Below, piece after piece: positions 18,017-63,830 of a stretch of 64,000 bases of DNA. The notes beneath the pieces were generated by a model. The model was not told the DNA's origin. It saw nothing but the letters and a program-made list of their open reading frames with translations, and ran no database searches. The position numbers were made by a program, and so were the translations under genes. This DNA comes from a virus. The stretch is from IMG/VR virus record IMGVR_UViG_3300037882_003336, positions 1 to 64,000 of that record; one strand, 5' to 3'. The stretch's first letter is position 1. The number at the start of each line of letters is the position of its first letter.

Positions 18017-18020
18017 CCCC

Positions 18021-19298: not shown

Positions 19299-21460
19299 TA
19301 GGTTGAGGTCAGTTTGAGTTTAAGATTTGCAATCTCGGAGTATAGATAAGGATTACTAGACCCGTCTAGGTAAACGCTATCAAAAATATCGGCACCAGCC
19401 AGAGCAATGGTTGGTGTATCGTCCAGTGGGAGATTGGTGGCTCCCATGATTGCACCCTGGGTTTCCACACCAGCCTTATCAATGCCAACGGCCAACTTCC
19501 TCGACGTGATTGGGTCACGGTTCGCTGCCTTGATCGCGTAAAGGTTAAACCCGAGCAGGTCAGCATGAATGTTTCCAATACCTGTCGGAACGTTACCAAC
19601 GGGGGTTTGAAAAGGCATCGAACAGGTAGAACCAGCAGGACCGAACAGTGTCTTATTGTTTGCTCCAGTTTGTGGAATGTTGGTGTAGTTGGCACCGTTC
19701 GCACCGATCTGCCATTTCCTCATTAGATAGGACATCACTCGCCCCCGGTCTGTCTCCGTGGTCGTGCTGTAGATGATTACTTCATGGACCCTTGCGTACA
19801 TGAAGGACGTATGGATGGCACCACTAACCCACCTCCCACCGAATAGGATGCCAGGGGTGGAGGTAGTGACCGAACCCTCACTATATTGTCCACCACCCTG
19901 GGAACTTAGCGTGGAGTGGTTACGGGAAACGTAGGACTGAGTGGCACTATTCCTACGGTCCATGAAGATGTAAGGACCACCCATCAAGACGCTACCATTT
20001 GATGGGGAGGCAGTCGCGCTGTTGACTTGGGTTTGTGTGATCTGCGATGCAAAGTTATTATAGTAAGCAACACGTGTCAGGGTGTCGTAGTCGTTCCCGG
20101 TACTACCAGGACCAACACCCAATGCAATGCCACCGTATCGACCACCCGTCAGGACACTCCCAAGGTCCTCCCAAACAATGAAGACGGTGCGAAGTGAAAG
20201 GTTGACAGTGAACAACGAGTTTGCCATCCAGTCATTACTGCCGTCAAACAGCATTGCACGCTTTCCGTTGAGCACGTTGGTCTTCAGGAATGGTTGTGCT
20301 CCACCGGTTGCCTGGGTGAGATGGTACCCGTTTCCGGATTTATCCTCCCATCTCGCCACTGGAGACCCATCAGTGGTGACGTTGGACCCACCTGAGGTGG
20401 CATCGAAAAGTGTGGTGGTATCGTTGGCATCCCACCACCCAACCATCCCGGAAATAGACGTGGGTGTGAAGCTTGATGCCACATACGGTATGCCTGACAC
20501 GGAGGTTGAGTGCAAGCCCCATTCACCACCTGACACCACTGACGGCATGTTGGGGTCCAGCCTAGCTCGGTAGGCGATTGGGCGACCGACCGGGAAGGAC
20601 CCCGTTGAGAATGTCACGTTGTCAAGTGTTCCAGAACAATGCAGTGTAGTTCCGTTGTCGATGGCGGGCGGGGAGAAGTAAATGAAAGTAGCGGTGGCGA
20701 GACTGATCGACGAGACTGTGTTTTGATTGGTGTAGGTGATGCCCATGTCCACCCCGTTGATGGAAACAGCAATGGAGCCAGTGGTCGCATCGAGCTTGGC
20801 ATGTACCCGGATAAAGTTCCACGCGAGGCTTTTGACACCAGCAGTTGATATGGTGGCGACTTCCGTTCCAGCGTTCCTTACCGAGTACACAACGGTGCTG
20901 GAATCGGAGTTTGCGTCATAGGTGGTGCTCTTAACCCGAATCGCTACATCACCCCACCTGAACATTTGAAGCGAATCGTCACTAGACTCGTAGGAAGAAT
21001 TGAATGACGCGCCAGTAGCAAAACCGCCTAAGTTACGGTCGGCGAAAAACTGAAAGTCGGCAGTGTAGAACACCTCGTCTGTGATGCTGTATACAGACCG
21101 TTTCAGGGCTAGCTGCATCGCCTTAGCGGCCAGGAATGTGGCTCTGGTTTGAGAGGTTCCAGAGGTATACGCTGCCGTGCTGGTGGTGTTGCTGGTTCTA
21201 GCGGTCTGGCACCGTCCATACGCGCCGCTTCCAATCAGAGCTTCTGATGAAGTGCCACGACCGACCGACTCCCAAAGTGCCGAGATGCTGTTGGAACCAT
21301 TTGGTGGGCTGACAACTTGAGACTCAGTCGCCACCCCGTTGGCGTGGAATACACCGGGGGGTTTAAGCCAGTTAGCCCAGGGGTTGTTGAACTGTATGCC
21401 GCCGTTGGTCGAAGCCGACCCAGTCGGAATGTCAAAGTCTAAAAGAATCTTCAGTGGCAT
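19298..21460 (-). CDS. Putative tail fibre/appendage protein, paralog 1, with internal LamG-like module
   Basis: Shared scaffold plus WWDAND...W.DKSGNG...FDGSND...KW insert. Confidence 0.7.
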   Translation of the reverse strand: MPLKILLDFDIPTGSASTNGGIQFNNPWANWLKPPGVFHANGVATESQVVSPPNGSNSISALWESVGRGTSSEALIGSGAYGRCQTARTSNTTSTAAYTSGTSQTRATFLAAKAMQLALKRSVYSITDEVFYTADFQFFADRNLGGFATGASFNSSYESSDDSLQMFRWGDVAIRVKSTTYDANSDSSTVVYSVRNAGTEVATISTAGVKSLAWNFIRVHAKLDATTGSIAVSINGVDMGITYTNQNTVSSISLATATFIYFSPPAIDNGTTLHCSGTLDNVTFSTGSFPVGRPIAYRARLDPNMPSVVSGGEWGLHSTSVSGIPYVASSFTPTSISGMVGWWDANDTTTLFDATSGGSNVTTDGSPVARWEDKSGNGYHLTQATGGAQPFLKTNVLNGKRAMLFDGSNDWMANSLFTVNLSLRTVFIVWEDLGSVLTGGRYGGIALGVGPGSTGNDYDTLTRVAYYNNFASQITQTQVNSATASPSNGSVLMGGPYIFMDRRNSATQSYVSRNHSTLSSQGGGQYSEGSVTTSTPGILFGGRWVSGAIHTSFMYARVHEVIIYSTTTETDRGRVMSYLMRKWQIGANGANYTNIPQTGANNKTLFGPAGSTCSMPFQTPVGNVPTGIGNIHADLLGFNLYAIKAANRDPITSRKLAVGIDKAGVETQGAIMGATNLPLDDTPTIALAGADIFDSVYLDGSSNPYLYSEIANLKLKLTST

Positions 21461-21467
21461 ATTAAAC

Positions 21468-24400
21468 CTATGTGATAGCCCATCTGTTCATGAGCGCGGA
21501 AATCATCCGGGTGCGAGTGGTGTGGCTGTGCGCGGTGTTGAAGATGATGATATCCCCGATGTAGCCTGAGAAGTTGCCAGAAACACCCGCAGACGACGCG
21601 TCGGTGCCAACCCAGAAGGTGCTGGTTCCCGCTGCCATGGCGGTGCTATTGGCAGCGGAGTTGTTGAGGACATGATTCCTGAAGAGCGACAGCATCTCCC
21701 CGTCGCTGCACACCGTAAACACCTGCCATCCTGACTGAAGTGGGGTAGTGGTGGTGAGTCGTCCACCACTACCGGTATTTCCGAAGTCGGCGTAGGTGAC
21801 TGATCCAGTGTAGTATGGGTAGAGTGAAACTTGTCTCGAAGCCGCATTGAAGACAGCCGCTGGGCCATTATGCAAGGCGGTCTTGCTGAAGACAAAATAA
21901 GCGGTATATCGGTCGGTGACTCCCCACGTGGTGAACAAATCCTGAGACGAGATAGCAAGGAAGCACTTAGACACTCCCTTCCACTGCACCGCGTTGAGCC
22001 CATTCTGTACCGAAGTGCGAAGGCTTGGTGCGATTTCGCTGTACAAGTTCAGGTGGGTAGCGTGTCTGGCATTCCCGGAAACATCCGTCCAGGTGGTGAG
22101 CGCGGTATCATCAGATCCAGACAGTGCTGGTCCGTCAAGGTTCAGGACTGGCGCAGTGATACTGGCTATCACGGTAGCAAGAGATTCAGTGGACGGTACC
22201 GGATAAGTCTCGTCGAGAATGATAACGGGCTGGAAACCCTCCAGGGAAAGCGTGTCGTCGACGGCATTCTGAGCGCCAATAACCGTCCCGAGTGCCTGAA
22301 CAGCTATTGATTCCTCAGAGTCTTCGGATGCTGCGATCACCGTTCCCAGCGCCTGCACCGCGATGCTGGACTCACGTAGGGTCTCTACGATCGGCACAAA
22401 GGACATCGCGTCGACCTGGAGGCCGTATTGGATATCTTCGACAATTGGAACGAACGCCAGCGCGTCAACTTGGAGACCACGCATTGCCCACTTGGACTTA
22501 GCATACAAAGAAAGGAGATTTATCTCGGTATCCGTCAGAACCCGATTCCAAGTAGCCACTTCGCCTATCCTCCCTCTCCAGGTATTACCAGAATAGTCAC
22601 CGAACAAGGCCAGCGCGTTCCCTGAGGCATCTGGCACCCACGCGTTGGAACCAGACCCCGCGTAGGTCATGGTCGACAACACCCCATCAACGTAAACCTT
22701 GGCTCCTGTAGTACCATCATCCCAGTTGCCGCCACCGTATATCAGGACCACGTGATACCATCTTCCAGCGGTTAGGATGGTGGTGGACTCCGCTCTCAAG
22801 TCGTTCAGAGAGGCAATCAACTTACCAGTGCTCAGGTGGCCAATCCTAATATTCTTGGTGTTTCCGGCAACTCCGAATCCAAATCCGTAGTAAAAATTGG
22901 CTGGACCGTCAGTCGACATTAGTATCGAAATTGTGAATCCAGTGGACGGCAGTATTGTGTTGCTGAGACCGGTGGCGGCAATTCGGGTGTCGTCCGGAGC
23001 ATATCCGGCAAGCGTGTAGTCAAAAACACCGTAGCTAGCTGCTGGTTGTAGGCTACCAGTGCCTTGTGCCAAGTTTACCCCGTTCCCGGATCGGTCCGCC
23101 AGGGTTGCATACGCCGCTTGGATCGGCTCTTGCCTGAAGTCATACCACGTGGTGAGGCCACTAGTCACTGGGATGGCATCAGGAACCGCCTCACGCAGTT
23201 CGATGCCCCATTTGTTGGCCAGGAACACCTCAAGCGCTTCGGATTCCTCGTCTGGAACCGCACGAGAGATCAACATGACCTCCGCCAAGTCACCCGCGAA
23301 GAATGAGGACGACCCTCCGATGTAGAAGGTGCCGGTGGTGGCGGCGTTGCCATGTCCAGAGATCGTGGACACCTGGACCACGCCGTTAACGCGTACCGTT
23401 GAGACCCCCGCCTCGCGAGTTATCGTGACGATGTTCCAACCACCGTGATGTGGGGTCGAGAAACCAGTCATCCCGTTCCCGACGGTATTCGCACCACGGG
23501 TCGAACTCATGTAGTGAACCGAACCCGCCTGCGTAGAATCGTAGATGCTGCCGTATATTCCGACATACCACCCGTTGGTGCCGTCATAAGTGCCGAGAAT
23601 CCGTCCGTTTTGGTTGACGGTGAACCTGAACACCAGCACGATTGTCTGATCGCTCGTCAGGTCGAAGTCGTTGGTGGCAAGCGACAACACGTCATTGGAG
23701 CCATCGAACCTCACCACCGTCCGCCCATTGTAGGTGGCGTTGGAGACGACGATTGGCTGATTGAGGCCAGTTCCCTGAGTGAGAGTGGCCGATGCCACGG
23801 TGTCAACCCAGCTGGAAATGGCGGTGCCGTTGGCGGTCGCGCTGAAGGATGCGTGGGCGTCCCAGTGACCCTCAAGGTCCAGGATGTCGGCGATACGGAA
23901 TTCGTAATCGCCAGGACCAGCCAGTTCCCAGTCCGCCTGAGACCGATCTGGAGCACCCATGGTCAGCGGCTGAGCCAGATCATAGACGGCGTCGACGACT
24001 CTCCAATCCGCCTGAGAGCGCTCTGCGTATTCGAGTTCTGGTTCGTATTCGGCACCAAGCACCCCCCAGTCTGCCAGCACCCGCTCAGTCTTGGTGTCGA
24101 CGGTCGAGAAGAAGGCCAGATACTCACCGACCTGTGACCTCCACCCCGCCATTGCATGCTCCAAGACGGCTTTTTCAAGGTACTGTTCACCGAACGCCCC
24201 ACCCCGCAGTGCCCACTTGATGCGAAGTTCCTCAATGGTCGCGATCGTCTCGGCAGTGTTGGTGCCACGGTCGTAGAATCTGACTTCACCGATGTGACCA
24301 CCAATCCCGTACCCGATTGATATGTTGGTGAGATAAGACCCGGTGATGGGGGCGCTGAGCGTTCCGGAGTCAACAATTTCCCCGTTGATCCAGAATTCGT

Positions 24401-27400
24401 ACTCAAGGTCTTCGTTGACCGTGATGTACCAAAGGCTCCAATGACCGGTCGGCTGTTCGCTGAACAAGACGGTGCTCGGTGGCAACGTCAGGTAGGCTTG
24501 TGGGTCTTCGGGGTCGACGGCGGTCGTACGACCAACGGTCAGCACGGAACCACCAGTGCCAAAGAAGATCTTGAGGATCGAGGAATAACCGAACGGCGGG
24601 TTCTCCACTTCCGGGTTGACGACCAACGCGATTGCGAACCCTGCAGCTGACTGCTCGGCGCTCCACGGTACCATCCCGTTCCATCGGAGAAGCTCCGTGT
24701 GGACGGTGGCGGATGGCGCGGAATCAAAAAACAGCCCGTTCAGCCCATTCCTGACCGCTACCTTGAGGCGGGGGCGTGTCGCCACGTCGGACTGGGAAAG
24801 GTCCATATCACCATCCCGCGCCAAGTTTGGCAGGGTCGCGATACGGTCGTTATTGGAGCCGGTGAGGGTGGACGCATCATACCACAGCAGCATTCCCAGG
24901 TCGCCATACTCGCCGGTCCGGTTGCGCCACCCCGCAAAGGTTCTTTCGGTGGCTCCCCGTGGGGTGTCTTGGTAGAAACCGGTACCACGGTTAGACCAGT
25001 TGGCGCTAGAATGCTCGCCAGCCGTCAAATCCTGAATCACCAAAGCCGCGTACTCGCCGGTCCTGGAAGCCCATGCAGCCCGTGCGCGTTCCAACCGCAT
25101 CCCAGCACTGGAAACACTCTCCGTGTACTCTCCCGTGCCAAGGCCAGCCCACCGGGCAACCGCACGCGACTCCTTGACGATGGCGTCCGGTTGGTCATCG
25201 AACAGACCACGGCGAATTCCCCATTTGTTGGCAAGCTCGGTTTCAATTGCCACCATGTCGTTGAACCGCTTGTACACATGGACTTCTCCCAATAAGCCCC
25301 GGAAGTTCGGACAAAGCAGGAAATCGGCGGTGATGTCATCAGGAAAGACTGCAGAGGTGGTGGATGCAGCGATCTCCAGCCCGTTCTCGCGGACCGTCAC
25401 GCTAGTACCGTTTCTGACGAAGCTCAGCACCATCCACTCATCGTCGTTCTCGGATGGATCGTTGGTGTCTTCAAGGAATTCCCCAGGAGCCGTCTGCCAT
25501 AAGATCGCGTTGGCGGCACTCCGGAAATAAGCTTTAAGGTAGCTGTCGCCAGTCTCTTCACCCCACCGGATCAGAGCCTGCTCTCCAGCGTCCGTCTTCT
25601 TGAGCACCATCACGATGGCGAACGAGGTATCGGCAATGTCCCAGCTGCCCTCCACGAACAGATTCTGAGCAGGTCGTAGTAGCATGCTGCCAGGACCGTC
25701 GAATTCGATCGCATTGAGACCGTTCCGGATGTTCAGACGGAGCACCGGGGAGCCAAGTGACTCCAAGTCGTTGCCATTGCCAGAGCTATCCGGAACGTCT
25801 TCCACCGGATCACCATCACCACCGCCAAGCCCACTCATATCCCAGATCGCCGCGATGTCTGCGTCATAATCACCGGGAAGGGCGTTCCAGGTCGCCGTGA
25901 CATGCTCGGATCGTTCCGCACTGCCCGTGATTGTCACGAAATACTCGCCAGTGAGACCCGTCCACCCACCCATCGCCTGTTCGGGGCGGGTCAGGGTGAC
26001 AAACTGATCCGAATACAAACCAGTCCTAGACGACCAACCAGCCAAGGCGTTGTCGGGAGCCCTGCTTATCAAGACCCGTGTTGGTTCGTAGACGCTTGAA
26101 TTGTCGGGCCAGAGACCACCGCGCCATTCGCCATCTGGAGTGAACTCACCCGCGATCCCAGAATCTTCGGCATCAGTCCAGTGGAGACCCGGCTCCAAGA
26201 TTGTGAGTTCGATCGCGTCCCGATCCCCGCCCGTCATCGTCAGGATGCCACTAAACCCGTCCCATCTTGGCAAGACGGTATCAAGCTCAACCTCCACGAA
26301 GGATTCGGCACTCCAGTCAAGCGCACTGACCCACACGTCAAGCTCGGACGAGTAGTACCCGAGAGTGATTTCGTAAACGCTGTTAACTTGCCAGTCCGAT
26401 GTTGAAGAATACTGCAGGACGGAGCTTGAGCCATCCTCGGGTACCCGGTACACCCGGAACTCAATCTCAGCAGCACGCGGGTGAGTGGTGCGCAGTTCGC
26501 CGGTCTGGTCGGCTTCTGGCGTCACAAACTCCAGCGTCTTCCACCAGAGGCGACCCGTGAGGTCGGCAGAGGGTGGCGCAACATCAACTTCAATGAACGG
26601 TCTTCCGTTTCCGTCAAATCCGCTACCCAGCACCGTCACCAACACTTCTGACTCCCCGGTCGGAGCAACCAGGATTTGCTGACCAACCGGGCAGAAGATG
26701 AGTTCCCCGGTGTCCTCGTCCACCCCAATGTTTGGCGCACCATCTCCAGAGTCGTTGCGAGGCGTAATGAAGTGGGACGTCGAGACAGTGGTCCAGCTTT
26801 CGAATCTTCCACCCCACGGCAGGCTGGCCATTTGCCAACGCCGATATGGGAGCAGCCAGTCGTAGTCCGGGGAGACTTGGTCGGATGAGAAGAACCCTTC
26901 GTTTTCGATCTCCACATCCCCGTCCACCGTGGCGGCGGGCTCCAGCGTGCCATCTCCGGATTGGGCGGCAAATCCGTCGGGAAGCTCATCGAGTAGGAGA
27001 CCTTCCGAAACGAGTTCCGCCCCTTCGGTCAGGTCCACGGAATTGCGCAGATAGTGAGCTTTGAGCGGGTCTCGACCGTGTCGTGCGCGATAGATGAACG
27101 TTCCATGCCGCTGCATGAAGTAGACCGGATATCCAGCGGTCCAGTATCCGGTCGGCACGGGCTCAATGATACCGGGTTCAACACCAGCGGTGCGAAGTCG
27201 TGGATCACGTCCCCTGAATGCCCCGTCCCAGAATCCCCAGTCTTCTTCACGTGCCACCCAGTCAACCCCAAGGGCGTCGTTGGAATGGAACGGGAACGCG
27301 ACGTGTGTCAGGGAGTGGTCGTCGTGGGTCGGGATGACCTGGATTTCGTCCTCCGGTCCGGTCTGGAAGGAAAGGCGAGGGTCGGGCTGATCCGTTGACA

Positions 27401-29546
27401 CCGCGTCTTCACTCACATACGGGATGATGGCGGCGATCGGATTCTCCACGACCAACGCCAGTTCCGGCGTGAGGATCGACTCGTCTTCCGTGCCGTCCGG
27501 GTGCAGCGACTCCAGGACCTGCTCCGGGGCTTGGAACGACGCAGTGAGGAACCCGTTGCGCAGGAACACGAACCCGTTGAAATCACCGGCTGGGCGCACC
27601 AGCGTGTCACGCGGGGAGTCGAGCGGGCTCGTGGTGACCGGGATGGGCGTGAAGATGCCGGTCGTCAGGATGCCCCACGTGTAGAAGTCGCCATCATCTG
27701 CGTCCTGCTGGATGACGGTGGTAACATCGTCCGTTCCCACTTCCTCCCAGACGTTCGATGGTGGACCGTCCGGATCGTTGATGAGAGCCGTGTAGACGTA
27801 CCCGAGATAGTAAGCGAGATCGCCCTCCGCATAGGTGGTGTCGGCGTCCCATGTCGCCGGTACCGCGTTCCCATAGTCCTGATATGGCACCGCGCTCCAA
27901 GTGCCTGTGATAGGCGGAGTAGCGGGTGCGATGAACGGCTGGCGCACCAAGAACATGCTACCAGCGCTGGAGACGAACTGCCCCTCCGTGTAAGATTCCC
28001 CTTCCGTGTAGGCTAGTACCAAGACCCATGACAGGCTTCCGGTCTCGGTGATTTTCAAGCGCCAGAGACCGCCGAACCCATCGTCAAGGTTGACTTCGGA
28101 GAGCGCCAGCACGGGCGCGTACTTGACCTGATCTTGATGGCTCCACCCGGCTTCCACATCGCGGAGGGTGCGGGTAAGCGGGGTGAGGGTCTTGGCAAGC
28201 GCTTGCTGCTGGGCGTTTTCCTGATCGTGTCTGATCCAATCAACCTCAAAGTGCTGGTCGGGATCGGCGATGACTGGCGTGCCGTCAAGGGAACCGGTGA
28301 CCGGGTAGTCGGGGGCAGTACGACTCACGTCTCCATCCATCTCGGAATCCTCGTCCGAAATCTGAACGGGAATCGGGTGATAGCGAGTGTGGAACTGCTG
28401 AAGGTCAAACGCAACCTTCAGATCGAAGAGAGAGCTTTTGAACTTGATCTCCGACATCGGGCCGGAGATCGAAACCAACTGAATGTCCAACGTGGCTCCC
28501 AAGGTGATCTCCATGATCACCAAGTTGCCGTGGGTGCCGGGGGTGTTGGCTTCGAACCTGTAGGCGACGCTGGAATCTTCCAGCGCCAAAATCGTGACAC
28601 CCGCTCGCTCACCCGGCAAACCGCCAGTCAGTGGGTAAAGGCCAGGACGCAGCAGGTGGTTGACACGCTCTGTGAACCCGCCGAATGGCTGGCGACCGTT
28701 GATACGGTGGAACGCTTGATTGTGGGCGGCGTCCGGATGGCAAGAGAAGGTGACGCTGTAGCTTGGGCCATCATCCAGCACGAACGGTGTGTAGTTGGCG
28801 CTTGGAACCGGTTGCTGGAAAAGCTCCGATACGGTCGTGATGACGGAACCAGCGGAAAGGCGCGGCACCTCGCTCAACACCTCGCCGTCGTACCGACCGA
28901 CCAGAGGCCAGTACGGGTAGTCAACAGGCTCGTATGCGAAATCCTCGGCGTTGACATCAGACCCTGGATATTCTGGGTCACGCGGGCTGTACCGGCTCCA
29001 AAGTTCCAAAACCTTGAAATCGACGTAGCCAAGAATCTTCGCGATGGCGGTCAGGGAACTCGCTGATCCACGGATTGCGTTTCTTGGTACCGCCGTTGCG
29101 ATCAGACGCCTCAGGACAGGTATCGGGTGCTTCGCCGTGATCACTTCACCGGAAGACCCAGCGAGAGCGTTGAGAGCGGCACGTTCAAACGCCGCCTTGG
29201 TCAGGTCACCCACGATCCTCGGTAGGACTTGCTGTTGGAGGATAGCCTCTTCGGCATCGGTCCGCTCGCGCAGTTCCATTAGCGCTTCATACTGCGCCCA
29301 CAGTTCCTCGTCCTCTGGCGTAAACGCCCCCGCCTTCATGGGGTCGCGCAAACGCCCAAGCTCTCTCAGCTTCGTCACCACCCAATTGTGCTGGGAAGTG
29401 AGCCCGATCATCAGCGATCGGAGGATCCCCTGGTCACGGCTACGGATTACATAAGGCAACCATTCGAACAACTGATCTGGTGCCAGATCCGCGAGTCCAT
29501 AGTCGATGCGTGTAGCGAGTGTCTGAGTTCGCGGGTTGGAAGCCAT
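21468..29546 (-). CDS. Giant (2692 aa) baseplate-wedge/tail-fibre protein with CBM5/12-like and multiple LamG-like modules
   Basis: N-terminal wedge-like region; W...TY..GD.AYY.G motif; about five W.DAS...KW modules. Confidence 0.75.
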   Translation of the reverse strand: MASNPRTQTLATRIDYGLADLAPDQLFEWLPYVIRSRDQGILRSLMIGLTSQHNWVVTKLRELGRLRDPMKAGAFTPEDEELWAQYEALMELRERTDAEEAILQQQVLPRIVGDLTKAAFERAALNALAGSSGEVITAKHPIPVLRRLIATAVPRNAIRGSASSLTAIAKILGYVDFKVLELWSRYSPRDPEYPGSDVNAEDFAYEPVDYPYWPLVGRYDGEVLSEVPRLSAGSVITTVSELFQQPVPSANYTPFVLDDGPSYSVTFSCHPDAAHNQAFHRINGRQPFGGFTERVNHLLRPGLYPLTGGLPGERAGVTILALEDSSVAYRFEANTPGTHGNLVIMEITLGATLDIQLVSISGPMSEIKFKSSLFDLKVAFDLQQFHTRYHPIPVQISDEDSEMDGDVSRTAPDYPVTGSLDGTPVIADPDQHFEVDWIRHDQENAQQQALAKTLTPLTRTLRDVEAGWSHQDQVKYAPVLALSEVNLDDGFGGLWRLKITETGSLSWVLVLAYTEGESYTEGQFVSSAGSMFLVRQPFIAPATPPITGTWSAVPYQDYGNAVPATWDADTTYAEGDLAYYLGYVYTALINDPDGPPSNVWEEVGTDDVTTVIQQDADDGDFYTWGILTTGIFTPIPVTTSPLDSPRDTLVRPAGDFNGFVFLRNGFLTASFQAPEQVLESLHPDGTEDESILTPELALVVENPIAAIIPYVSEDAVSTDQPDPRLSFQTGPEDEIQVIPTHDDHSLTHVAFPFHSNDALGVDWVAREEDWGFWDGAFRGRDPRLRTAGVEPGIIEPVPTGYWTAGYPVYFMQRHGTFIYRARHGRDPLKAHYLRNSVDLTEGAELVSEGLLLDELPDGFAAQSGDGTLEPAATVDGDVEIENEGFFSSDQVSPDYDWLLPYRRWQMASLPWGGRFESWTTVSTSHFITPRNDSGDGAPNIGVDEDTGELIFCPVGQQILVAPTGESEVLVTVLGSGFDGNGRPFIEVDVAPPSADLTGRLWWKTLEFVTPEADQTGELRTTHPRAAEIEFRVYRVPEDGSSSVLQYSSTSDWQVNSVYEITLGYYSSELDVWVSALDWSAESFVEVELDTVLPRWDGFSGILTMTGGDRDAIELTILEPGLHWTDAEDSGIAGEFTPDGEWRGGLWPDNSSVYEPTRVLISRAPDNALAGWSSRTGLYSDQFVTLTRPEQAMGGWTGLTGEYFVTITGSAERSEHVTATWNALPGDYDADIAAIWDMSGLGGGDGDPVEDVPDSSGNGNDLESLGSPVLRLNIRNGLNAIEFDGPGSMLLRPAQNLFVEGSWDIADTSFAIVMVLKKTDAGEQALIRWGEETGDSYLKAYFRSAANAILWQTAPGEFLEDTNDPSENDDEWMVLSFVRNGTSVTVRENGLEIAASTTSAVFPDDITADFLLCPNFRGLLGEVHVYKRFNDMVAIETELANKWGIRRGLFDDQPDAIVKESRAVARWAGLGTGEYTESVSSAGMRLERARAAWASRTGEYAALVIQDLTAGEHSSANWSNRGTGFYQDTPRGATERTFAGWRNRTGEYGDLGMLLWYDASTLTGSNNDRIATLPNLARDGDMDLSQSDVATRPRLKVAVRNGLNGLFFDSAPSATVHTELLRWNGMVPWSAEQSAAGFAIALVVNPEVENPPFGYSSILKIFFGTGGSVLTVGRTTAVDPEDPQAYLTLPPSTVLFSEQPTGHWSLWYITVNEDLEYEFWINGEIVDSGTLSAPITGSYLTNISIGYGIGGHIGEVRFYDRGTNTAETIATIEELRIKWALRGGAFGEQYLEKAVLEHAMAGWRSQVGEYLAFFSTVDTKTERVLADWGVLGAEYEPELEYAERSQADWRVVDAVYDLAQPLTMGAPDRSQADWELAGPGDYEFRIADILDLEGHWDAHASFSATANGTAISSWVDTVASATLTQGTGLNQPIVVSNATYNGRTVVRFDGSNDVLSLATNDFDLTSDQTIVLVFRFTVNQNGRILGTYDGTNGWYVGIYGSIYDSTQAGSVHYMSSTRGANTVGNGMTGFSTPHHGGWNIVTITREAGVSTVRVNGVVQVSTISGHGNAATTGTFYIGGSSSFFAGDLAEVMLISRAVPDEESEALEVFLANKWGIELREAVPDAIPVTSGLTTWYDFRQEPIQAAYATLADRSGNGVNLAQGTGSLQPAASYGVFDYTLAGYAPDDTRIAATGLSNTILPSTGFTISILMSTDGPANFYYGFGFGVAGNTKNIRIGHLSTGKLIASLNDLRAESTTILTAGRWYHVVLIYGGGNWDDGTTGAKVYVDGVLSTMTYAGSGSNAWVPDASGNALALFGDYSGNTWRGRIGEVATWNRVLTDTEINLLSLYAKSKWAMRGLQVDALAFVPIVEDIQYGLQVDAMSFVPIVETLRESSIAVQALGTVIAASEDSEESIAVQALGTVIGAQNAVDDTLSLEGFQPVIILDETYPVPSTESLATVIASITAPVLNLDGPALSGSDDTALTTWTDVSGNARHATHLNLYSEIAPSLRTSVQNGLNAVQWKGVSKCFLAISSQDLFTTWGVTDRYTAYFVFSKTALHNGPAAVFNAASRQVSLYPYYTGSVTYADFGNTGSGGRLTTTTPLQSGWQVFTVCSDGEMLSLFRNHVLNNSAANSTAMAAGTSTFWVGTDASSAGVSGNFSGYIGDIIIFNTAHSHTTRTRMISALMNRWAIT

Positions 29547-44235: not shown

Positions 44236-44456
44236 AACGGTGTGCCCAGATTGTTCGACTCATCTTCGTCTTTCGCCAAGGCGATAGCGGAACTCACCTG
44301 TTCCTGAAGATCCGCTTCCCCGTCGTCCATTTGCACCCGCGTTCCATCGGGTCTGACCGCCTCAACGGACGCTGAGTCCTTTTCCACCGATATCACGATG
44401 GACCATCCATCCACGAGCACCTCGGCAGCTTTGTTGACGGTCTCTTCCAGTGTCAT
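44211..44456 (-). CDS. Hypothetical protein
   Basis: ATGA overlap with purB. Confidence 0.55.
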   Translation of the reverse strand: MTLEETVNKAAEVLVDGWSIVISVEKDSASVEAVRPDGTRVQMDDGEADLQEQVSSAIALAKDEDESNNLGTPLWKIFGKP

Positions 44457-45688
44457 ATGGAGGGATTGGCGTTAGAGTGTGAAGCCAGTTTGATGAGGCG
44501 AATGAGGTCCGGTGACACCGTGTGCTTTGCGTCGCCCATCTTCTTCAGTGCAATGGCCTTGGCCTTTGCACGACTCAATGTCGGGTCTTTGACGCGCTCC
44601 CCCACCATGAATGCCTGAGCCATCACGGATGCCGGAACCACTGGTGGATGCTGTGTGACGTGAACCCTTTCCAGGGTGCTGGTGAGAAGGGTGGTCTGGT
44701 GGCAAAGCACGTGGAAAAGATCTGGCCACACGACGTTTTCGACGGCACTGTGCGAGATGTCGCGTTCATTCCACAATTCCACGTTTTCCAAGAGCGAGTT
44801 CGTATACCCGCGCACCAAGCGAGCCATCCCGCAAACACGCTCCAGCCCCACTGGGTTTGGGCGAGATTCCTTACCGGGCATCGAGCTACTCGTGGAGGTA
44901 CCGGCGTTGCGGTGCCCAGCCGAATATACCAATTCCTCGACACCATCTTGAAGCAAGAGGCGAATATCGAGTGCGATCCGCGCCAAAACTCCAGAATACA
45001 CGGCGAGCATCTGTGCAAATGCTGCGTAAAAGTGGCGGGGGACGCACTGAGTGGATGGGTTGACGATGAACAGACTTTCCTCAATGTTCGGGCAGGATGT
45101 GGTAGAGAGCGGAGACAGACTGAGGCTGTACAGGTCCGGGCGGTAGTAGTAACACCCTACTGAACCACCGAACTTCACAGGCATTTGGGTGAGAGTAAAC
45201 CTTCTCAAGGAGTCTTCGATCTCCCAAAACCAACACTCCAACTTGTGCTTCCATGGGATTGGCTCCGCGAACCTCCCGTGAGTTCTCGCCATGAGTACGC
45301 GACGACTATCCGCGGGGGTGTCCTCTTCCATCACAAGCATGCGACGAATTTGGCCAGTGAGCTTCCCCGCCAAACCCGACAGTCGGTTCCGGTATTCAAC
45401 CAGCTGGATTGACAGGGCGGTGTCGGTGACATCGCTGGTCGTGAGGCCAAGGTGGAGGTTCTGAATCCCGATGTACGGTTCGATGCACCGCAAGACCGCG
45501 TCGAGTTCGTGGCCAGATTCAGCGACAAAGCTATTGAAGTCCGTCCAGCAACAGTGGTTGCGTAGCAGTTCCTTAGCTTCTCCGTCCGGGTCTTTGGAGC
45601 CCGCAAGGAAAAGACTGATCTTAACCCACAAGAAGCGGGTTGATTCCGATACCCACTTGATGTCCTTATCTTCGTACTTTGGTAGCAT
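44453..45688 (-). CDS. purB: Adenylosuccinate lyase (divergent)
   Basis: GHE, HLGLTTSDV.DTA, RTHG, GGSVG, TQ..PR, SSSMPGK...NP...ER..G.AR and ERDISHS.VE motifs. Confidence 0.9.
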   Translation of the reverse strand: MLPKYEDKDIKWVSESTRFLWVKISLFLAGSKDPDGEAKELLRNHCCWTDFNSFVAESGHELDAVLRCIEPYIGIQNLHLGLTTSDVTDTALSIQLVEYRNRLSGLAGKLTGQIRRMLVMEEDTPADSRRVLMARTHGRFAEPIPWKHKLECWFWEIEDSLRRFTLTQMPVKFGGSVGCYYYRPDLYSLSLSPLSTTSCPNIEESLFIVNPSTQCVPRHFYAAFAQMLAVYSGVLARIALDIRLLLQDGVEELVYSAGHRNAGTSTSSSMPGKESRPNPVGLERVCGMARLVRGYTNSLLENVELWNERDISHSAVENVVWPDLFHVLCHQTTLLTSTLERVHVTQHPPVVPASVMAQAFMVGERVKDPTLSRAKAKAIALKKMGDAKHTVSPDLIRLIKLASHSNANPSI

Positions 45689-51145: not shown

Positions 51146-52414
51146 TTATAGGGTGGAAGCGTGGTCTGTCTCGGGAGACCAGTTGAAGAGCACGTGCTCT
51201 TCACCACAGTAAACGTCCGAATCGGCCATGAACTTAGTAAGGCTTTTTCCGTGCTCGTGTGCTGCTTTTGGGTCTCCGTTCAGGTAGTTGAGGAACGTTA
51301 GGAACATAAATACACCACCCGGTGCGTTGTTCAGTCTCACGAAATCCCGCCATGCGATTTCGCTCATGGTCGCGATGCGGCGTGGGAGCTTGGTGAGAGT
51401 TGTGATTTCGCTCGGCACGTCCCAGCCAGCGTAAGACCGGATTTCGTCCCATGTGAGTTCGGTCTGGTCAGTTTCCCAACCCCCGCTAGACCCTTCGACC
51501 ACTTGGATTTCGTCGCCTCTACCGTCGGCGCGGAGTGCGTCGATTTCGACTTGGGTCAGAAACGCCCCGTTGTGGAGGTATCGGTTGCTGGCAATGCGAA
51601 TTGGGAAGGTCCGGTTGACGCCAACGACCGAATTGAGCAACGCGGGGGCCACACAGGTCTCGCTGAGGAATGAAGCCACCGAAGTGGACCGGCTCGTGCA
51701 GTACGGGTAGTGCGGGCCGTAATTGGAAAGCTGAAAGCCCTGTGACCCGTCGAGCAGCGCCCCGTTGTAACAATTGGCGATGGTTTCGTTGATGTCACCG
51801 CGTGGCTGCGCGTACTCCCACACCGCATTCACATCACGAGCCATGGTGGCCCTCCGAAGCGCACGTTTGGCGCGGGCGGCTCCGGAGCCGGACCCGGTGG
51901 TGCCAGTGCGAGACAATGCCAAGTCCCGGTCAGCGATGGGCTTTCCGTTGAAGTCGTGGGTTCCGTTCTCCAATCCTTCGTCCTCTGGCGTGACGATCGC
52001 GGCCAGAGGGTGAATGAAAAGGTGGGTGCGGGGAACTTCCAGCATTTCCACTTCTTTCTTCAGGTCTTCCGGCTTGAACGCCGCGCCCGGTCCAATGAAG
52101 ATGTAGGGGCGATAGTCCTGATAGCCCCAATAAAACGCACCGGCTGGAAGCACCTTCACCACCCCGCTTCGGCTCACCGAAGAATCGGTAACGGTGTGGC
52201 TAGAATTCCGCGAGTTGGCGGTCAATAGCACCCCCGGTCGCCCAATCTTGGCGAGCAAGGCGCTTGCACACCCCTTGGCCTCAGAACCGGTCTGAGCACC
52301 CATGACCACTGAAACCCGGTTCGGCTTGAAGATGTTCTTGACGAGCCCATCTCGCTCAAAGAGCCTCTGGTTGTCATTGAAGTGTCTGGACCAAGCTTTG
52401 GGATCGTACGTCAT
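51146..52414 (-). CDS. purZ: Adenylosuccinate synthetase paralog, PurZ-type (N6-succino-2-amino-2'-deoxyadenylate synthase)
   Basis: GAQTGSEAKG (Ser at the PurA Asp13 position), NSSHT, GTTGSG.G, GSQGF.L, YPYCTSR, RTFPIR, TTLTKLPRR and TFLNYL. Confidence 0.8.
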   Translation of the reverse strand: MTYDPKAWSRHFNDNQRLFERDGLVKNIFKPNRVSVVMGAQTGSEAKGCASALLAKIGRPGVLLTANSRNSSHTVTDSSVSRSGVVKVLPAGAFYWGYQDYRPYIFIGPGAAFKPEDLKKEVEMLEVPRTHLFIHPLAAIVTPEDEGLENGTHDFNGKPIADRDLALSRTGTTGSGSGAARAKRALRRATMARDVNAVWEYAQPRGDINETIANCYNGALLDGSQGFQLSNYGPHYPYCTSRSTSVASFLSETCVAPALLNSVVGVNRTFPIRIASNRYLHNGAFLTQVEIDALRADGRGDEIQVVEGSSGGWETDQTELTWDEIRSYAGWDVPSEITTLTKLPRRIATMSEIAWRDFVRLNNAPGGVFMFLTFLNYLNGDPKAAHEHGKSLTKFMADSDVYCGEEHVLFNWSPETDHASTL

Positions 52415-52436
52415 AAAGTGTAGCAGAAAACGGTGT

Positions 52437-52628
52437 TTACTCGCGGGTCTTCCGATTGAAGAACTGGTAGATGCGCTCACGCAGTGAACCCAGCAGAGAC
52501 AGGGTCGCGGTAGGTGCCCATGTTGGGCATTTTGGATGAGCCGACAAGCCCATGTCGCACTGGTATGCGCCATAGGCGAAGTTGGCAGAGTAACGGCAGG
52601 TGTTGCAGGACCGTGGAAGATGTTTCAC
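52437..52628 (-). CDS. Small Cys-rich protein
   Basis: C..C...C...C..W pattern. Confidence 0.5.
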   Translation of the reverse strand: MKHLPRSCNTCRYSANFAYGAYQCDMGLSAHPKCPTWAPTATLSLLGSLRERIYQFFNRKTRE

Positions 52629-52644: not shown

Positions 52645-52836
52645 CTAATATGGCATCTCGTTCCAAGTACCGGGCTCTGGCAGTCCCAAACGGGAGGAAG
52701 TCTTCACCCAGGTCTGATCCCTGGGGTTGTAAGTCTGATCCTCGCGGAAGAGTGGCTCACCGTTTTCGAATCCAGCGGCTTTGGAACCACGGTGGATGCG
52801 GCGACCGAGTGCTGACCATTGGGCGAAGGTTTTCAT
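52645..52836 (-). CDS. Hypothetical protein
   Basis: ATGA overlap; start MKTFAQW. Confidence 0.55.
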   Translation of the reverse strand: MKTFAQWSALGRRIHRGSKAAGFENGEPLFREDQTYNPRDQTWVKTSSRLGLPEPGTWNEMPY

Positions 52837-53546
52837 AATGGAACTTGTACGCGTTTTTCGACGATCGTGGCAGTTGGGTTGATGGCACGGCATTTGTCGA
52901 GTGCTGACTCCATAGTGTTGTACTTCTGTGTGTTAAGTTCCCTAACCGAAGAATTCACATAGTAGTGTTGACCCTCAGACCACTTGGAAATCGTAAACAC
53001 CTCCTGTTTGTAAAGCCCAACCATATCACCATTCCACTCCATGGAGTCTGTCACCTTTTCAATGGGGTCGGTGCGCATCCCACCTTGGAAGTTCACAAAG
53101 ACGTTGTCCTCCTTGTCGAGCAGCGCCTTGGCAGTCGCAGCCCACATAGTGCCAAACTCAGCCCACGACGGATGCTTTCCTTCTTTTACTGCCATATCCA
53201 TGTGAATATTGCGTTCCTGCAGCACTTTGAACTGCTTAGTGAACCAGTCTCGGTACAGATGTAGGCGCGGTAAGTCGAGCTTGGTGAGGTGAATAAACCA
53301 CGCTTTGTAGTCATTCGGTTCCAGAGAGGTGTCAAGCAACGCCAGAGTTATGGGCGAAGGCCGATCGGGTGGCTCCACGCCAACGATTTCGGCCATTGCT
53401 CGGACTTTCCGGGCTTGCTGTTGAGCCTTTTTCACAATCCTCGGGCTCATACCGGATTCATCGACGATCTTGGCGTCGCGTTCGGCCATGTCGGCTAGAG
53501 TTGAGGCAAACTCGCGGAGTTCCTCGATGGTGAATTCAGGGCTCAT
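52833..53546 (-). CDS. Hypothetical protein
   Basis: ATGA overlaps within an early operon. Confidence 0.65.
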   Translation of the reverse strand: MSPEFTIEELREFASTLADMAERDAKIVDESGMSPRIVKKAQQQARKVRAMAEIVGVEPPDRPSPITLALLDTSLEPNDYKAWFIHLTKLDLPRLHLYRDWFTKQFKVLQERNIHMDMAVKEGKHPSWAEFGTMWAATAKALLDKEDNVFVNFQGGMRTDPIEKVTDSMEWNGDMVGLYKQEVFTISKWSEGQHYYVNSSVRELNTQKYNTMESALDKCRAINPTATIVEKRVQVPL

Positions 53547-54427
53547 TGTGGTTTCAGGGTTTCAGCTAGTGCGTCGAGTTTGATGCGGAGTTCCTCTTCC
53601 TTGTAACAAGAGTCGTTCCATTTATCTTCATCGCGGAGGCTAAGAACTCCGTTCCGGCAGATGGTGGCGAGCAGTTCCACATCCAGTGCGTCAAGCTCCC
53701 ACGACTCGTTGCCGTACTTGGCGACGTACTCGGGGGCGCGACTGTCGCTCATCTTGGTGGGGTTGGGGATGAGATTGTGCCGTTCGATCTGGCGCATGGT
53801 GAGCGCTGCCCGGTGCACCGTGATGTCGGACTGGGAGAACAAAGCGAGGCGGTCCGCCACGTCCGTGCTCATGTGAACTCCGCTCGGATCGAAGTCCCCG
53901 AAGTAGATCACGTGGCATTTCTTCCTGCCCGCCACGGTGCGCTCCTGCAGTTCCTTGCCAAGGTCGTACATCGCGGTGGCACTGCTGTACCCCTTGTTGG
54001 AGTGGAATGGCACTTCCAGCTTTCGGCACACTGGAGCCAATACGCCCTCAAGCGCCTGCTTCTCGCATGCCACCACCACGTAATTTGTCTGGTCCTGCCA
54101 TTTGTCGATCTTGAAGCCCTCGACGGTGCTGCGCATGATGTGGTATGGGGAATCCCAAGTCTGGACGATATGAGGTACCCGTCCCCGATCCACGATCGCG
54201 TCCCAGTCGATCAGCCCCGCCATCCGTCCGTCGGCGACCGCGCCCTTCAGCCGGTCGTATGACTCCTGCGAGTTCGGGTAGACGTTGTCCTTGACGCCTT
54301 GGTAGAAAAGCTGGCGCAAGGAGAGTGAATACCCGCGAGCCAAATAATCCGAACAGACCCCGTCAGCCCACGTGATCAGGCGCATGGTCTCGCTGCGGAA
54401 CGCTTTGTCGATGAACTTTTCGTACAT
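53543..54427 (-). CDS. Topoisomerase VI-A/Spo11-like wHTH-Toprim protein
   Basis: LRQLFYQ, CEK, KGYSS, YFGDFDPSG and WELDAL motifs. Confidence 0.8.
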   Translation of the reverse strand: MYEKFIDKAFRSETMRLITWADGVCSDYLARGYSLSLRQLFYQGVKDNVYPNSQESYDRLKGAVADGRMAGLIDWDAIVDRGRVPHIVQTWDSPYHIMRSTVEGFKIDKWQDQTNYVVVACEKQALEGVLAPVCRKLEVPFHSNKGYSSATAMYDLGKELQERTVAGRKKCHVIYFGDFDPSGVHMSTDVADRLALFSQSDITVHRAALTMRQIERHNLIPNPTKMSDSRAPEYVAKYGNESWELDALDVELLATICRNGVLSLRDEDKWNDSCYKEEELRIKLDALAETLKPQ

Positions 54428-54432
54428 CCGAC

Positions 54433-54461
54433 ACTATAACACAGCCCGTGACTTTTGTCAA
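54433..54461 (-). promoter_or_regulatory. Sigma70-type early promoter (leaderless)
   Basis: TTGACA-17 nt-TATAGT; ATG 5 nt downstream. Confidence 0.85.
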
Positions 54462-62016: not shown

Positions 62017-62169
62017 CTATTCGTTGTTGATTACGTCACCATCCGCCAGTTCCACCGAGCAGTCAAGGTGGAGACGAGCCCCGGCTTCTCCAAACTCGTC
62101 GGGTACGCTGGGTTGACCGTACTCGATGGGCTTGTCGCAATAGGCGCAGTGGTTAGATGGGTTTGTCAT
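62017..62169 (-). CDS. Small zinc-finger protein (50 aa, below the ORF-track cutoff)
   Basis: MTNPSNHCAYCDKPI...HLDC; ATGA overlap with the ATPase gene. Confidence 0.5.
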   Translation of the reverse strand: MTNPSNHCAYCDKPIEYGQPSVPDEFGEAGARLHLDCSVELADGDVINNE

Positions 62170-63830
62170 CCGGGCAAGAATTGAAGGGCGTAAGAGAGGT
62201 TCTCGGTGGTGGCGGTATCGTTACCGAGACGTTTGGTGAGGCGCAGGAGATTCTTGATGGTACGTGGCGAAATCGGGTTCTTGTCGTTCCGCTTGTCGGC
62301 GTCCTTCTCGCTCTGTGGTCTGCTCTGGAATTCTTCGAACAGGATCTCCAGAAACTGGGTGGTTTCCTTGGCGGTGACCTTGAGGTCGAACAGGCCAGCG
62401 AACTGCTTGAGAATTTGGGCAGCGGCTTCCCGGTCCGGGTTGGAGTAGGTGAGTACCGCACTGCACCGGCTCAGCACCGCGTCGTCGATCAGCAAATCCC
62501 GGTTGGTGGTCATGAAGATCACGCCATTGAAATACTCAAGGGTGCGGAGCAACGTTCCCACGATCGCGTTTTGTTCGATGTTGGTGCCGCGCTCATACAC
62601 GTAGATGTCAACCTCATCGATCAGCAGGATGGCACCCCATCGCTGGGCGCGGGCGAACACTTCCTTAAGGTTCCCCTCCAGCGCTTTCGCGGTCACTCCG
62701 AGTTGGTCGGACTGCACCCGGTACAGTGGCACCCCGGCTCGCTCTGAAAACGCCTCAGCGGTCATAGTCTTTCCAGTACCTGGAGAACCCTTCGCCATGA
62801 TGATCGTGCCACCACTCTTTCCCTTCACGAAGTCAGCCTTGAGGGTGTCAGGGTTGCTAACCAACAGGTTGACGAGGTCCTTGTGGTATTGTGGAATGAT
62901 GAGGCGATTGATGAGAACCTCATCGTACTGATATGGCGAAACCCAAGTGCACGGCACCCACATGTGGTCGTGAGTTTCGAGGTTGAACACATACAGGTAT
63001 GGATGGATCGGGATTTCGAACACGTCCACCTCGTCACCACCACGGAGGTTCGGTAGCTTCATCTTGCGCGACGACTCCCCTTTAGACCTGAACGCCGAGA
63101 TGTCGTTGATGACTTTGAAGTTGCTGACTCCCGTCAGGTACTCGCGACTGGTGCTGGTATAACGCCAGTCCTCGTTACTTGGCAACCAACTGGTGGTGAG
63201 CAAAAACTGGGTGTTAACTTGAGCCATGTAGTCCTCCCACTGTTTCAGGGTCTGATGGTACTGCTGTACGATGTCTTCCCCCACAAACCCGTACCCGTGT
63301 TGGGCGAGAAGCGAAGAAACCGTCATACCACGGCGCTGCTTTTCCTGATTGAACAAGTCGTTGTCGTGGAATGTGATTCCGGTCGAGCGTTGTTCCCCCT
63401 TGGTCCAATAAACCAAGTTAACGCGCACGGAAGCCGGAACATCCTTTTGGGATGGCGTATAGACGGCTCCCGTCGTCAGATAAGGCAGCGGGATGCCGAT
63501 GTCGTTGTTGTGCTGAAAGAGCCAACGGGTGGCGCTCTGGACCATGCAGGCTTGCGTGATCGCTTCAGCGAGTGCGTCCAGACGGGTCACGGGGGCATGC
63601 GGATCATCGACCGCCTTCCGGACCAAGGAGAGCTTCTGGAGCACTCCGTTGAACACCTGACTGTTCTTGGAGGCGAATGTGTGGACCGCACGGATGAACT
63701 CTCCGTCCACATGATAAGTCTCGAAGGTTGCTTCCTTCTCCCGGCTCCAGCCGGTTTCGGTCATCGCGGGGTGGTTGATGCCAGCGGCTTTGAGAGCTTC
63801 GTATTGTTCAGAAGAAAACGAGATAGTCAT
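62166..63830 (-). CDS. AAA+ ATPase
   Basis: Walker A GSPGTGKT, Walker B LLIDE, sensor TTNR and Arg finger SR. Confidence 0.9.
   Translation of the reverse strand: MTISFSSEQYEALKAAGINHPAMTETGWSREKEATFETYHVDGEFIRAVHTFASKNSQVFNGVLQKLSLVRKAVDDPHAPVTRLDALAEAITQACMVQSATRWLFQHNNDIGIPLPYLTTGAVYTPSQKDVPASVRVNLVYWTKGEQRSTGITFHDNDLFNQEKQRRGMTVSSLLAQHGYGFVGEDIVQQYHQTLKQWEDYMAQVNTQFLLTTSWLPSNEDWRYTSTSREYLTGVSNFKVINDISAFRSKGESSRKMKLPNLRGGDEVDVFEIPIHPYLYVFNLETHDHMWVPCTWVSPYQYDEVLINRLIIPQYHKDLVNLLVSNPDTLKADFVKGKSGGTIIMAKGSPGTGKTMTAEAFSERAGVPLYRVQSDQLGVTAKALEGNLKEVFARAQRWGAILLIDEVDIYVYERGTNIEQNAIVGTLLRTLEYFNGVIFMTTNRDLLIDDAVLSRCSAVLTYSNPDREAAAQILKQFAGLFDLKVTAKETTQFLEILFEEFQSRPQSEKDADKRNDKNPISPRTIKNLLRLTKRLGNDTATTENLSYALQFLPG

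Follow-up and report, generated by a model that had tools for sequence, protein, structure and literature searches.

The gene considered here lies on the minus strand of a 64,000-nucleotide stretch of viral DNA, positions 1 to 64,000 of the IMG/VR record IMGVR_UViG_3300037882_003336 (the window, by which that whole stretch is meant), and encodes a homologue of adenylosuccinate synthetase (AdSS) whose residues and phylogeny are of the PurZ rather than the PurA type. PurZ is the N6-succino-2-amino-2'-deoxyadenylate synthase of phages with 2-aminoadenine (Z) in their DNA. The open frame spans 51146..52573, and a start at 52414 gives a protein of 422 residues (P0001). This start is favored over the farther ATG because alignments with homologues begin at query residue 24-29; the start at 52573 was rejected, the 53 residues that it adds having no counterpart in the homologues. 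A first-pass annotation, made from the sequence alone, had placed a PurZ gene at 51146-52414 in a T4-like jumbo phage with a predicted Z genome. That gene call stands, with an intact frame and a start that fits the homologues, and the assignment to the PurZ type is borne out by both the residues and the tree. The gene and the motifs on which the assignment turns, all of them present where they had been quoted, are as follows.

51146..52414, minus strand: long-form PurZ-type synthetase coding sequence, 422 residues, stop codon at 51146-51148, assigned from family matches, alignment and tree
52271..52288, minus strand: P-loop GSEAKG, residues 43-48, with Ser44 in place of the PurA catalytic Asp13 and Ala46 in place of Gly15
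52193..52207, minus strand: NSSHT, residues 70-74, in which the equivalents of Asn38 and His41 are kept (His73)
Residues 268-275 of the protein: RTFPIRIA
51491..51589, minus strand: clade-specific insert of 33 residues after PIRIA, residues 276-308
51377..51403, minus strand: TTLTKLPRR, the Asp/nucleotide-binding loop, residues 338-346, in which Thr338 equals phiVC8 T262 (2-amino pocket) and Leu343 falls in the Arg303/phiVC8 K267 column
51284..51304, minus strand: FLTFLNY, the nucleoside triphosphate base pocket, residues 371-377, in which Phe374, Asn376 and Tyr377 replace Lys331, Asp333 and Val334 of the PurA TKLD motif

Family, active site and insert of the synthetase

By sequence comparison, the family match of the protein is far beyond chance. 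It matches Pfam PF00709 with 55.1 bits (cut-off 27; 7e-15) and PHROG 1211, a family whose annotation is PurZ, at 1.4e-35, and its best NCBIfam model is that of PurZ (NF038379; 138.4 bits, 2.7e-40), followed by archaeal-type PurA with 115 bits and bacterial purA with 66 bits. Among sequences in the PDB, phiVC8 PurZ (6FM1) matches at 1.4e-23, S-2L PurZ (7ODX) at 6e-19 and Pyrococcus PurA at 6e-18, with weaker matches to PurZ0 (7VF6; 2e-11) and E. coli PurA (~1e-4). An AlphaFold2 model built with 18 homologues has a predicted local distance difference test score (pLDDT) of 82.9, and its top 43 Foldseek matches are all AdSS or PurZ, with 6fm1 first. These matches include a near-tie in which 6fm1, 5k7x, 7odx and 7vf6 (phiVC8 PurZ, archaeal PurA, S-2L PurZ and PurZ0) all have template modeling (TM) scores of ~0.75-0.79; the predicted fold confirms the family, not the subfamily, PurZ and archaeal PurA being inseparable by fold comparison. 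The closest homologues are P0002 (55% identity), P0005, P0011 and P0052, and seven homologues at 43-55% identity have ~100 invariant positions in common, including the catalytic and binding motifs.

The subfamily is indicated by the residues of the active site, which were compared in a MAFFT alignment of 237 homologues together with E. coli PurA, phiVC8 PurZ, S-2L PurZ, Wayne PurZ0 and ORF141 of the Flavobacterium phage MaF61. As had been proposed, serine takes the place of the catalytic aspartate: Ser44 stands in the Asp13 column, and serine is found there in 90 of 90 homologues of the long-insert clade described below. Asp13 has a conservation of 99% among PurA sequences, and the position is serine in all 147 phage PurZ and PurZ0 sequences (PMC12884076). 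The catalytic histidine is retained, His73 aligning with His41, and Gln225 aligns with PurA Gln224. The replacement of the GTP-specifying TKLD by TFLN was also read correctly, with Phe374 on Lys331 and Asn376 on Asp333; Phe374 and Tyr377 match F295 and Y298 of phiVC8, two residues that stack against the ATP adenine (bioRxiv 10.1101/2025.10.22.683976). The same work, a metagenomic association study of dZ contigs, names phiVC8 S14, F12, T262 (2-amino group), F295, Y298 (ATP adenine), P233 and W252 as positions that separate PurZ from PurA (bioRxiv 10.1101/2025.10.22.683976). The window protein is PurZ-like at S14, P233, W252, T262, F295 and Y298, as well as at S-2L S23 and T273, and the PurZ-discriminating positions are 87-100% conserved among the 90 long-clade homologues.

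A leucine at the Arg303 position had been taken to imply a preference for deoxynucleotides. Leu343 does align with E. coli Arg303 and phiVC8 K267, and the protein appears to have no Arg303-type residue that would contact the 2'-OH; the leucine is not itself diagnostic, since the phiVC8 enzyme, which is specific for 2'-deoxyguanosine monophosphate (dGMP), has a lysine there. This lysine, K267, is the structural equivalent of Arg303 and is too far from C2' for ribonucleotide stabilization (PMC8342488).

Comparison with characterized enzymes follows the same lines. Archaeal PurA (Pyrococcus horikoshii, 5K7X/2D7U) and E. coli PurA (1ADE) have the fold, His41, Gln224 and the Arg305/306 pair in common with the window protein, but none of the canonical PurA features Asp13, Arg303 and TKLD for GTP is found in it, their places being taken by Ser44, Leu343 and TFLN. 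With phiVC8 PurZ (6FM1/6FKO/6TNH; deoxyguanylosuccinate synthase, DgsS) and S-2L PurZ (7ODX) the likeness extends from the fold (TM 0.79) to the serine at Asp13, the retained His41, the threonine at phiVC8 T262, the phenylalanine and tyrosine of the ATP-adenine pocket, the loss of Asp333 and the lack of an arginine at Arg303, and S-2L PurZ has exactly the same TKLPRR tail. Unlike these enzymes, the window protein has Ala in place of Gly15 and Thr where phiVC8 has F12, and it is ~60-80 residues longer through an N-terminal extension, the 33-residue insert and a longer C-terminus; the extension and an insert of ~30 residues after RTFPIRIA had already been described, and both set the protein apart from the phiVC8 and S-2L enzymes. 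The insert falls at the site of a short PurZ-specific insertion in S-2L PurZ, beside the deoxyribose-facing Val loop (alignment; PMC8342488), and is predicted by AlphaFold2 as a structured strand-helix-strand unit. PurZ0 resembles the window protein in the serine at Asp13, and the P-loop hexapeptide GSEAKG is identical in phage Wayne; it differs in its weaker sequence match (2e-11) and in keeping aspartate in the Asp333 column (TMLD), where the window protein has Asn376.

Phylogeny and the phages that carry the gene

A phylogeny with PurA, PurZ and PurZ0 had been suggested as a check on the assignment, and it places the window protein inside an ATP-type PurZ group, with a thin outgroup of just two sequences, PurA of E. 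coli and a single archaeal-type PurA. The careful tree, with which quick trees agree, was built in IQ-TREE from 53 sequences under LG+C20+F+G4, with ultrafast bootstrap and the Shimodaira-Hasegawa approximate likelihood ratio test (SH-aLRT). With few exceptions, the best 237 homologues have serine in the Asp13 column. The long-insert sequences, including the window protein and that of MaF61, form one monophyletic clade (99/99) that lies outside the canonical phiVC8/S-2L clade (98/92) and is united with it, and with other sequences that have Ser13 and Asn333, in the ATP-type group (100/99). PurZ0-like sequences, which keep Asp333, and PurA branch outside this group. Short clades with Ser13 and Asn333 (P0125-P0235), which branch beside canonical PurZ, keep arginine in the Arg303 column.

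A scan of IMG/VR for the phages that carry these genes yielded 80 loci in two groups, with 35 long-form genes (L007-L041), a lower bound for the clade, on contigs of 11-320 kb and 45 short canonical PurZ genes (L042-L086) on contigs of 6-59 kb. Those long-clade genomes that are complete, with terminal repeats, are 129, 150, 151 and 320 kb long, and the full sizes implied by CheckV for long-clade records are roughly 130-370 kb. The long clade belongs to gp23-type myoviruses of ~130-370 kb, whereas PurZ of the phiVC8/S-2L type belongs to sipho- and podoviruses of 40-57 kb. A Pfam Gp23 capsid gene was present in all five long-clade records tested, and the neighbors of the long-clade gene in relatives include genes for a gp46/gp47-like recombination nuclease, HU and ribonucleotide reductase. 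The large-myovirus context of PurZ is real and recurrent.

Two scans of the 185,579 genomes in GTDB found no relative, and the Verrucomicrobia host named in the first-pass annotation stays presumptive. Among 50,697 records, the one cultured phage with a long-clade gene is Flavobacterium phage MaF61 (PQ858689). MaF61 is a myovirus of 167.8 kb by electron microscopy, and the gene is not discussed in its description (PMC13269007). ORF141 of this phage, annotated as 'putative adenosuccinate synthetase', belongs to the same long-insert clade and has the signature residues; the phage has a gp23-type capsid and a PurB-like gene ~10 kb away. ORF141 differs from the window protein in sequence (28.6% identity) and in its longer insert, the corresponding interval having 94 residues in ORF141 and 65 in the window protein.

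The window itself comes from a linear IMG/VR fragment of 78.7 kb. The following genes, which match the head-module PHROGs 138 and 207 (207 being the prohead protease), uphold its description as T4-like; "jumbo" rests on a full size of ~200 kb, estimated from the 39% completeness that CheckV assigns to this fragment.

9071-10519, minus strand: gp23-family major capsid protein (Pfam Gp23, 131 bits; PHROG match)
10565-12703, minus strand: prohead protease of a T4-type head module (PHROG match)

The PurB-like lyase, the Z-cluster helpers and the neighboring genes

A second gene of interest lies 5.5 kb from the synthetase in the window.

44453..45688, minus strand: PurB-like coding sequence (adenylosuccinate lyase family), 411 residues; Pfam Lyase_1, 61.8 bits

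The best family of this lyase is TIGR00928 purB, with 135 bits where the cut-off is 326, and it matches the adenylosuccinate lyase of T. maritima (PDB 1c3u) at 3.8e-30. The motifs TSD and THG are present, together with the signature loop SSxMPxK..NP, which has a three-residue insertion, and the C-terminal domain is short. The combination of PurZ with a PurB of the phage's own had been put forward as a new context. The setting in a large gp23-type myovirus, with the lyase 5.5 kb away, holds, but phage-encoded PurB is not new: PurZ0 actinophages also encode PurB-like lyases, which gives a phage PurB beside a PurZ-type enzyme a precedent. Among cultured phages, PurB-like genes otherwise occur mainly in these actinophages (Gordonia Ghobes, Archimedes, Frizzle and Sapo; the Streptomyces Hiyaa group). 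Separately, the 274-kb Microcystis phage MaAM05 has a purB and no PurZ-like match to the window protein.

PurB-like lyases occur in 12 of the 34 long-clade records and are of two subfamilies that barely cross-match, that of the window being of the TIGR00928 type and that of MaF61 of the E. coli type (PRK09285, 227 bits). Because the two lyases belong to different subfamilies, long-clade phages seem to have acquired PurB in two or more independent captures, and this recurrent pairing of PurZ with PurB supports the assignment to a pathway. MaF61 differs from the window also in having a guanylate kinase and an HD_3-like gene. A 151-kb relative (G031; L037 10001-16034), an IMG/VR genome with direct terminal repeats, has PurZ, PurB and MazG within 6 kb, and a guanylate kinase, an HD gene and a family-B polymerase (PolB) elsewhere; judged by its gene content, it appears to hold a more complete candidate pathway than the window.

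The companions of canonical PurZ were sought by phmmer with the phiVC8, S-2L and Wayne proteins as queries, and by six-frame Pfam searches of whole records. With phmmer, DpoZ, MazZ and DatZ matches lie beside PurZ at ~41-43 loci, all of them short loci (L042-L086) or reference loci, which takes in nearly every canonical PurZ; unlike canonical PurZ, the long-clade genes have no adjoining DpoZ-MazZ-DatZ cluster. In the six-frame searches, HD_3 matched 5 of 34 long-clade records, in each case weakly and at a non-adjacent site; PF04447 (MazZ/DUF550) matched no long-clade record above the family cut-off, with one sub-threshold match (G013, 15.4 bits); among the controls S-2L, phiVC8, G033 and G034, HD_3 matched in 4 of 4 and PF04447 in 3 of 4, the exception being phiVC8. 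HD and MazG are sporadic in long-clade records. No DpoZ/PolA match was found on the window contig or near long-clade genes, and two relatives (G011 and G031) have PolB. Homologues of DutZ, DmtZ, gp51 and DUF5664 are likewise lacking on the window contig, in which it differs from PurZ0 phages. Six-frame searches of the contig for guanylate kinase and A_deaminase were negative, and Pfam and PHROG searches of ~50 other proteins encoded on it gave no nucleotide-pool enzyme, polymerase, kinase or deaminase, which leaves the PurB-like lyase as the only helper found there.

An adenosine-deaminase-family gene (A_deaminase, PF00962; 123-162 bits) is present in 8 of the 34 long-clade records (L007, L013, L017, L019, L021, L027, L028 and L034), including G001, the closest large relative of the window, and in 0 of 4 controls, all of which carry canonical PurZ. 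In the record G022, an A_deaminase-family gene adjoins the PurB-like gene.

Upstream of the synthetase the window contains the following features.

54433..54461, minus strand: sigma70-like promoter TTGACA-17-TGnTATAGT, a consensus match only (11/12), directly upstream of the gene at 53543-54427
53543-54427, minus strand: Toprim/topoisomerase-like protein of 294 residues (PHROG 6247 'DNA topoisomerase', 302 bits; faint DUF2399/DUF7281 Pfam matches)
52833-53546, minus strand: protein of 237 residues, co-oriented, between the promoter and PurZ

The synthetase had been described as lying downstream of an early promoter at 54433. A sigma70-like site is indeed present on its upstream side, at a distance of ~2 kb; counted from this site, PurZ comes third or fourth in a row of genes of one orientation, after two to three others. 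The designation "early" is presumptive. Elsewhere on the minus strand, proteins of 635, 720 and 2692 residues (16109-18016, 19298-21460 and 21468-29546) have a PHROG 10356 virion-structural domain in common, which is C-terminal in the 635- and 2692-residue proteins; an unmatched gene for 425 residues (18021-19298) separates the first two. Judging by their common domain, these proteins at 16109-29546 seem to be paralogs and to form a family of very large virion proteins. The window also encodes a homologue of an AAA+ / FtsH-like ATP-dependent protease (62166-63830, minus strand; PHROG 29662, 288 bits), and an endolysin candidate with PG_binding_1 and CHAP domains lies at 13224-14105 of L087 (contig 73224-74105, plus strand).

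Proposed route to 2-aminoadenine and its alternatives

The best explanation of these data, to which we assign a probability of about 60%, is that the gene encodes an ATP-dependent PurZ-type enzyme, an N6-succino-2-amino-2'-deoxyadenylate synthase, belonging to a distinct long-insert subfamily of large gp23-type myoviruses and acting by the mechanism given here; a Z-type pathway in the window phage is likely. From the family, residue signature and tree position of the enzyme, its T4-type context and its recurrent pairing with PurB, we infer its substrate and product and the incorporation of the latter into DNA. The synthetase would convert dGMP, aspartate and ATP to succino-2-amino-dAMP, with His73 playing the same role as in PurA, Phe374 and Tyr377 holding the adenine of ATP, and Leu343 taking away the Arg303 contact to the 2'-OH. 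The PurB-like lyase (44453-45688) would strip fumarate from this intermediate to give dZMP, the deoxynucleotide of Z, from which host kinases would make dZTP, and the phage replicase would place Z opposite T.

Several observations weigh against this explanation. The PurZ model NF038379 has a curated cut-off of 300 bits, which the 138.4 bits of the window protein do not reach, and identity to characterized PurZ, that of phiVC8 and S-2L, is ~27%. The equivalent of phiVC8 F12 is Thr42, with Ala in most of the long clade, and the clade insert, of 33-110 residues, lies at the sugar-facing loop, where it could alter specificity. DatZ, MazZ/DUF550, DpoZ and DutZ were found neither on the 78.7-kb contig of the window, which is 39% complete, by phmmer and six-frame Pfam searches, nor at distances of up to 10 kb from the 35 long-clade genes, and a PurB-like lyase is present in just 3 of 6 complete long-clade relatives.

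Some of these points would also be expected of an enzyme with a PurZ-like fold and pocket that takes another substrate (GMP, dIMP or dXMP), makes another N6- or 2-substituted purine, the insert retuning its specificity, or drains or rebalances the dGMP pool instead of rewriting the genome. The long clade is separate from every assayed PurZ, its large insert sits at a loop tied to deoxyribose recognition (PMC8342488), the F12 pocket position is Thr or Ala, and its accessory genes are other ones, with no DatZ, MazZ or DpoZ but with A_deaminase in some relatives and in none of the canonical controls. We nevertheless regard such a change of substrate as unlikely, if worth keeping in mind, as all residues tied to the choice of dGMP and ATP other than F12 are PurZ-like and conserved, the leucine in the Arg303 column argues against ribonucleotides, and the route from dGMP to dZMP needs just such a pairing with PurB.

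The pairing with PurB could also be read in terms of an ordinary auxiliary metabolic PurA that, together with the phage PurB, raises the synthesis of AMP from IMP during infection, since AMP is made by PurA and PurB acting in succession and the phage has a gene of each type. Phage homologues of PurA outside PurZ are common (481 homologues, 147 PurZ; PMC12884076), and no dATP-removal genes were found. This is improbable in the face of the serine at Asp13 in every one of the clade members, the change of the GTP contacts Lys331 and Asp333 to Phe and Asn, a match to E. coli PurA of 1e-4 against 1e-23 for PurZ, and a tree that sets the clade inside PurZ and far from PurA; canonical PurA was rejected on Asp13, Lys331, Asp333 and the tree. 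A decayed remnant with no enzymatic role, to which the sub-cut-off PurZ score and the change of the P-loop Gly15 to Ala might point, is hardly credible given the intact frame, the ~100 positions, catalytic and binding motifs included, that are invariant across seven homologues at 43-55% identity, the occurrence of the same GSEAKG P-loop in the PurZ0 of phage Wayne, and the confident AlphaFold2 model (pLDDT 82.9).

If the enzyme is of the PurZ type, it does not follow that adenine is fully replaced. The Z genome of the first-pass annotation stays a prediction, and the extent of any A-to-Z replacement a matter of conjecture, because DatZ, MazZ/DUF550 and DpoZ are missing, both on the contig and in most complete relatives. 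Substitution may be partial; in a phage that has neither a DatZ-type dATPase nor a Z-selective polymerase, DNA with both A and Z and DNA with Z throughout are equally plausible. It is possible that dA is depleted by another enzyme, for which the A_deaminase-family gene of several relatives may provide an alternative route. A broader proposal, which we put forward tentatively and at somewhat below even odds, is that large T4-type myoviruses of ~130-370 kb make Z-DNA without DatZ or DpoZ, by means of a long-insert PurZ, a captured PurB, lineage-specific helpers (an adenosine-deaminase-family enzyme, MazG, guanylate kinase) and a family-B replicase.

In the known Z-DNA phages, which are small sipho- and podoviruses, PurZ is accompanied by DatZ and MazZ and in most cases by a polymerase selective for Z. 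The PurZ signature described here belongs to a separate, well-supported clade confined to large gp23-type myoviruses, in which those helpers are missing and PurB has been captured repeatedly. No paper in the searchable literature was found to link PurZ to myoviruses or jumbo phages, although the clade may sit unremarked in the published trees of earlier homology surveys; two papers describe Z phages as Siphoviridae and Podoviridae (PMC8599892; PMC8342488). Cultivation of MaF61 makes the question of Z directly testable. Were Z absent, the serine-for-Asp13 signature would be insufficient as a predictor of Z genomes, which bears on the more than 2000 viruses for which such genomes have been predicted from PurZ homology alone (PMC13128860). 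Were Z present, the base would be found in a major and abundant lineage of phages and would be compatible with T4-type PolB replisomes, and these phages would either exclude adenine in another way or tolerate DNA in which A and Z are mixed. If a route free of DatZ and DpoZ does operate, the paradigm of the small sipho- and podoviruses would greatly understate how common 2-aminoadenine DNA is, and would also understate the variety of mechanisms that produce it.

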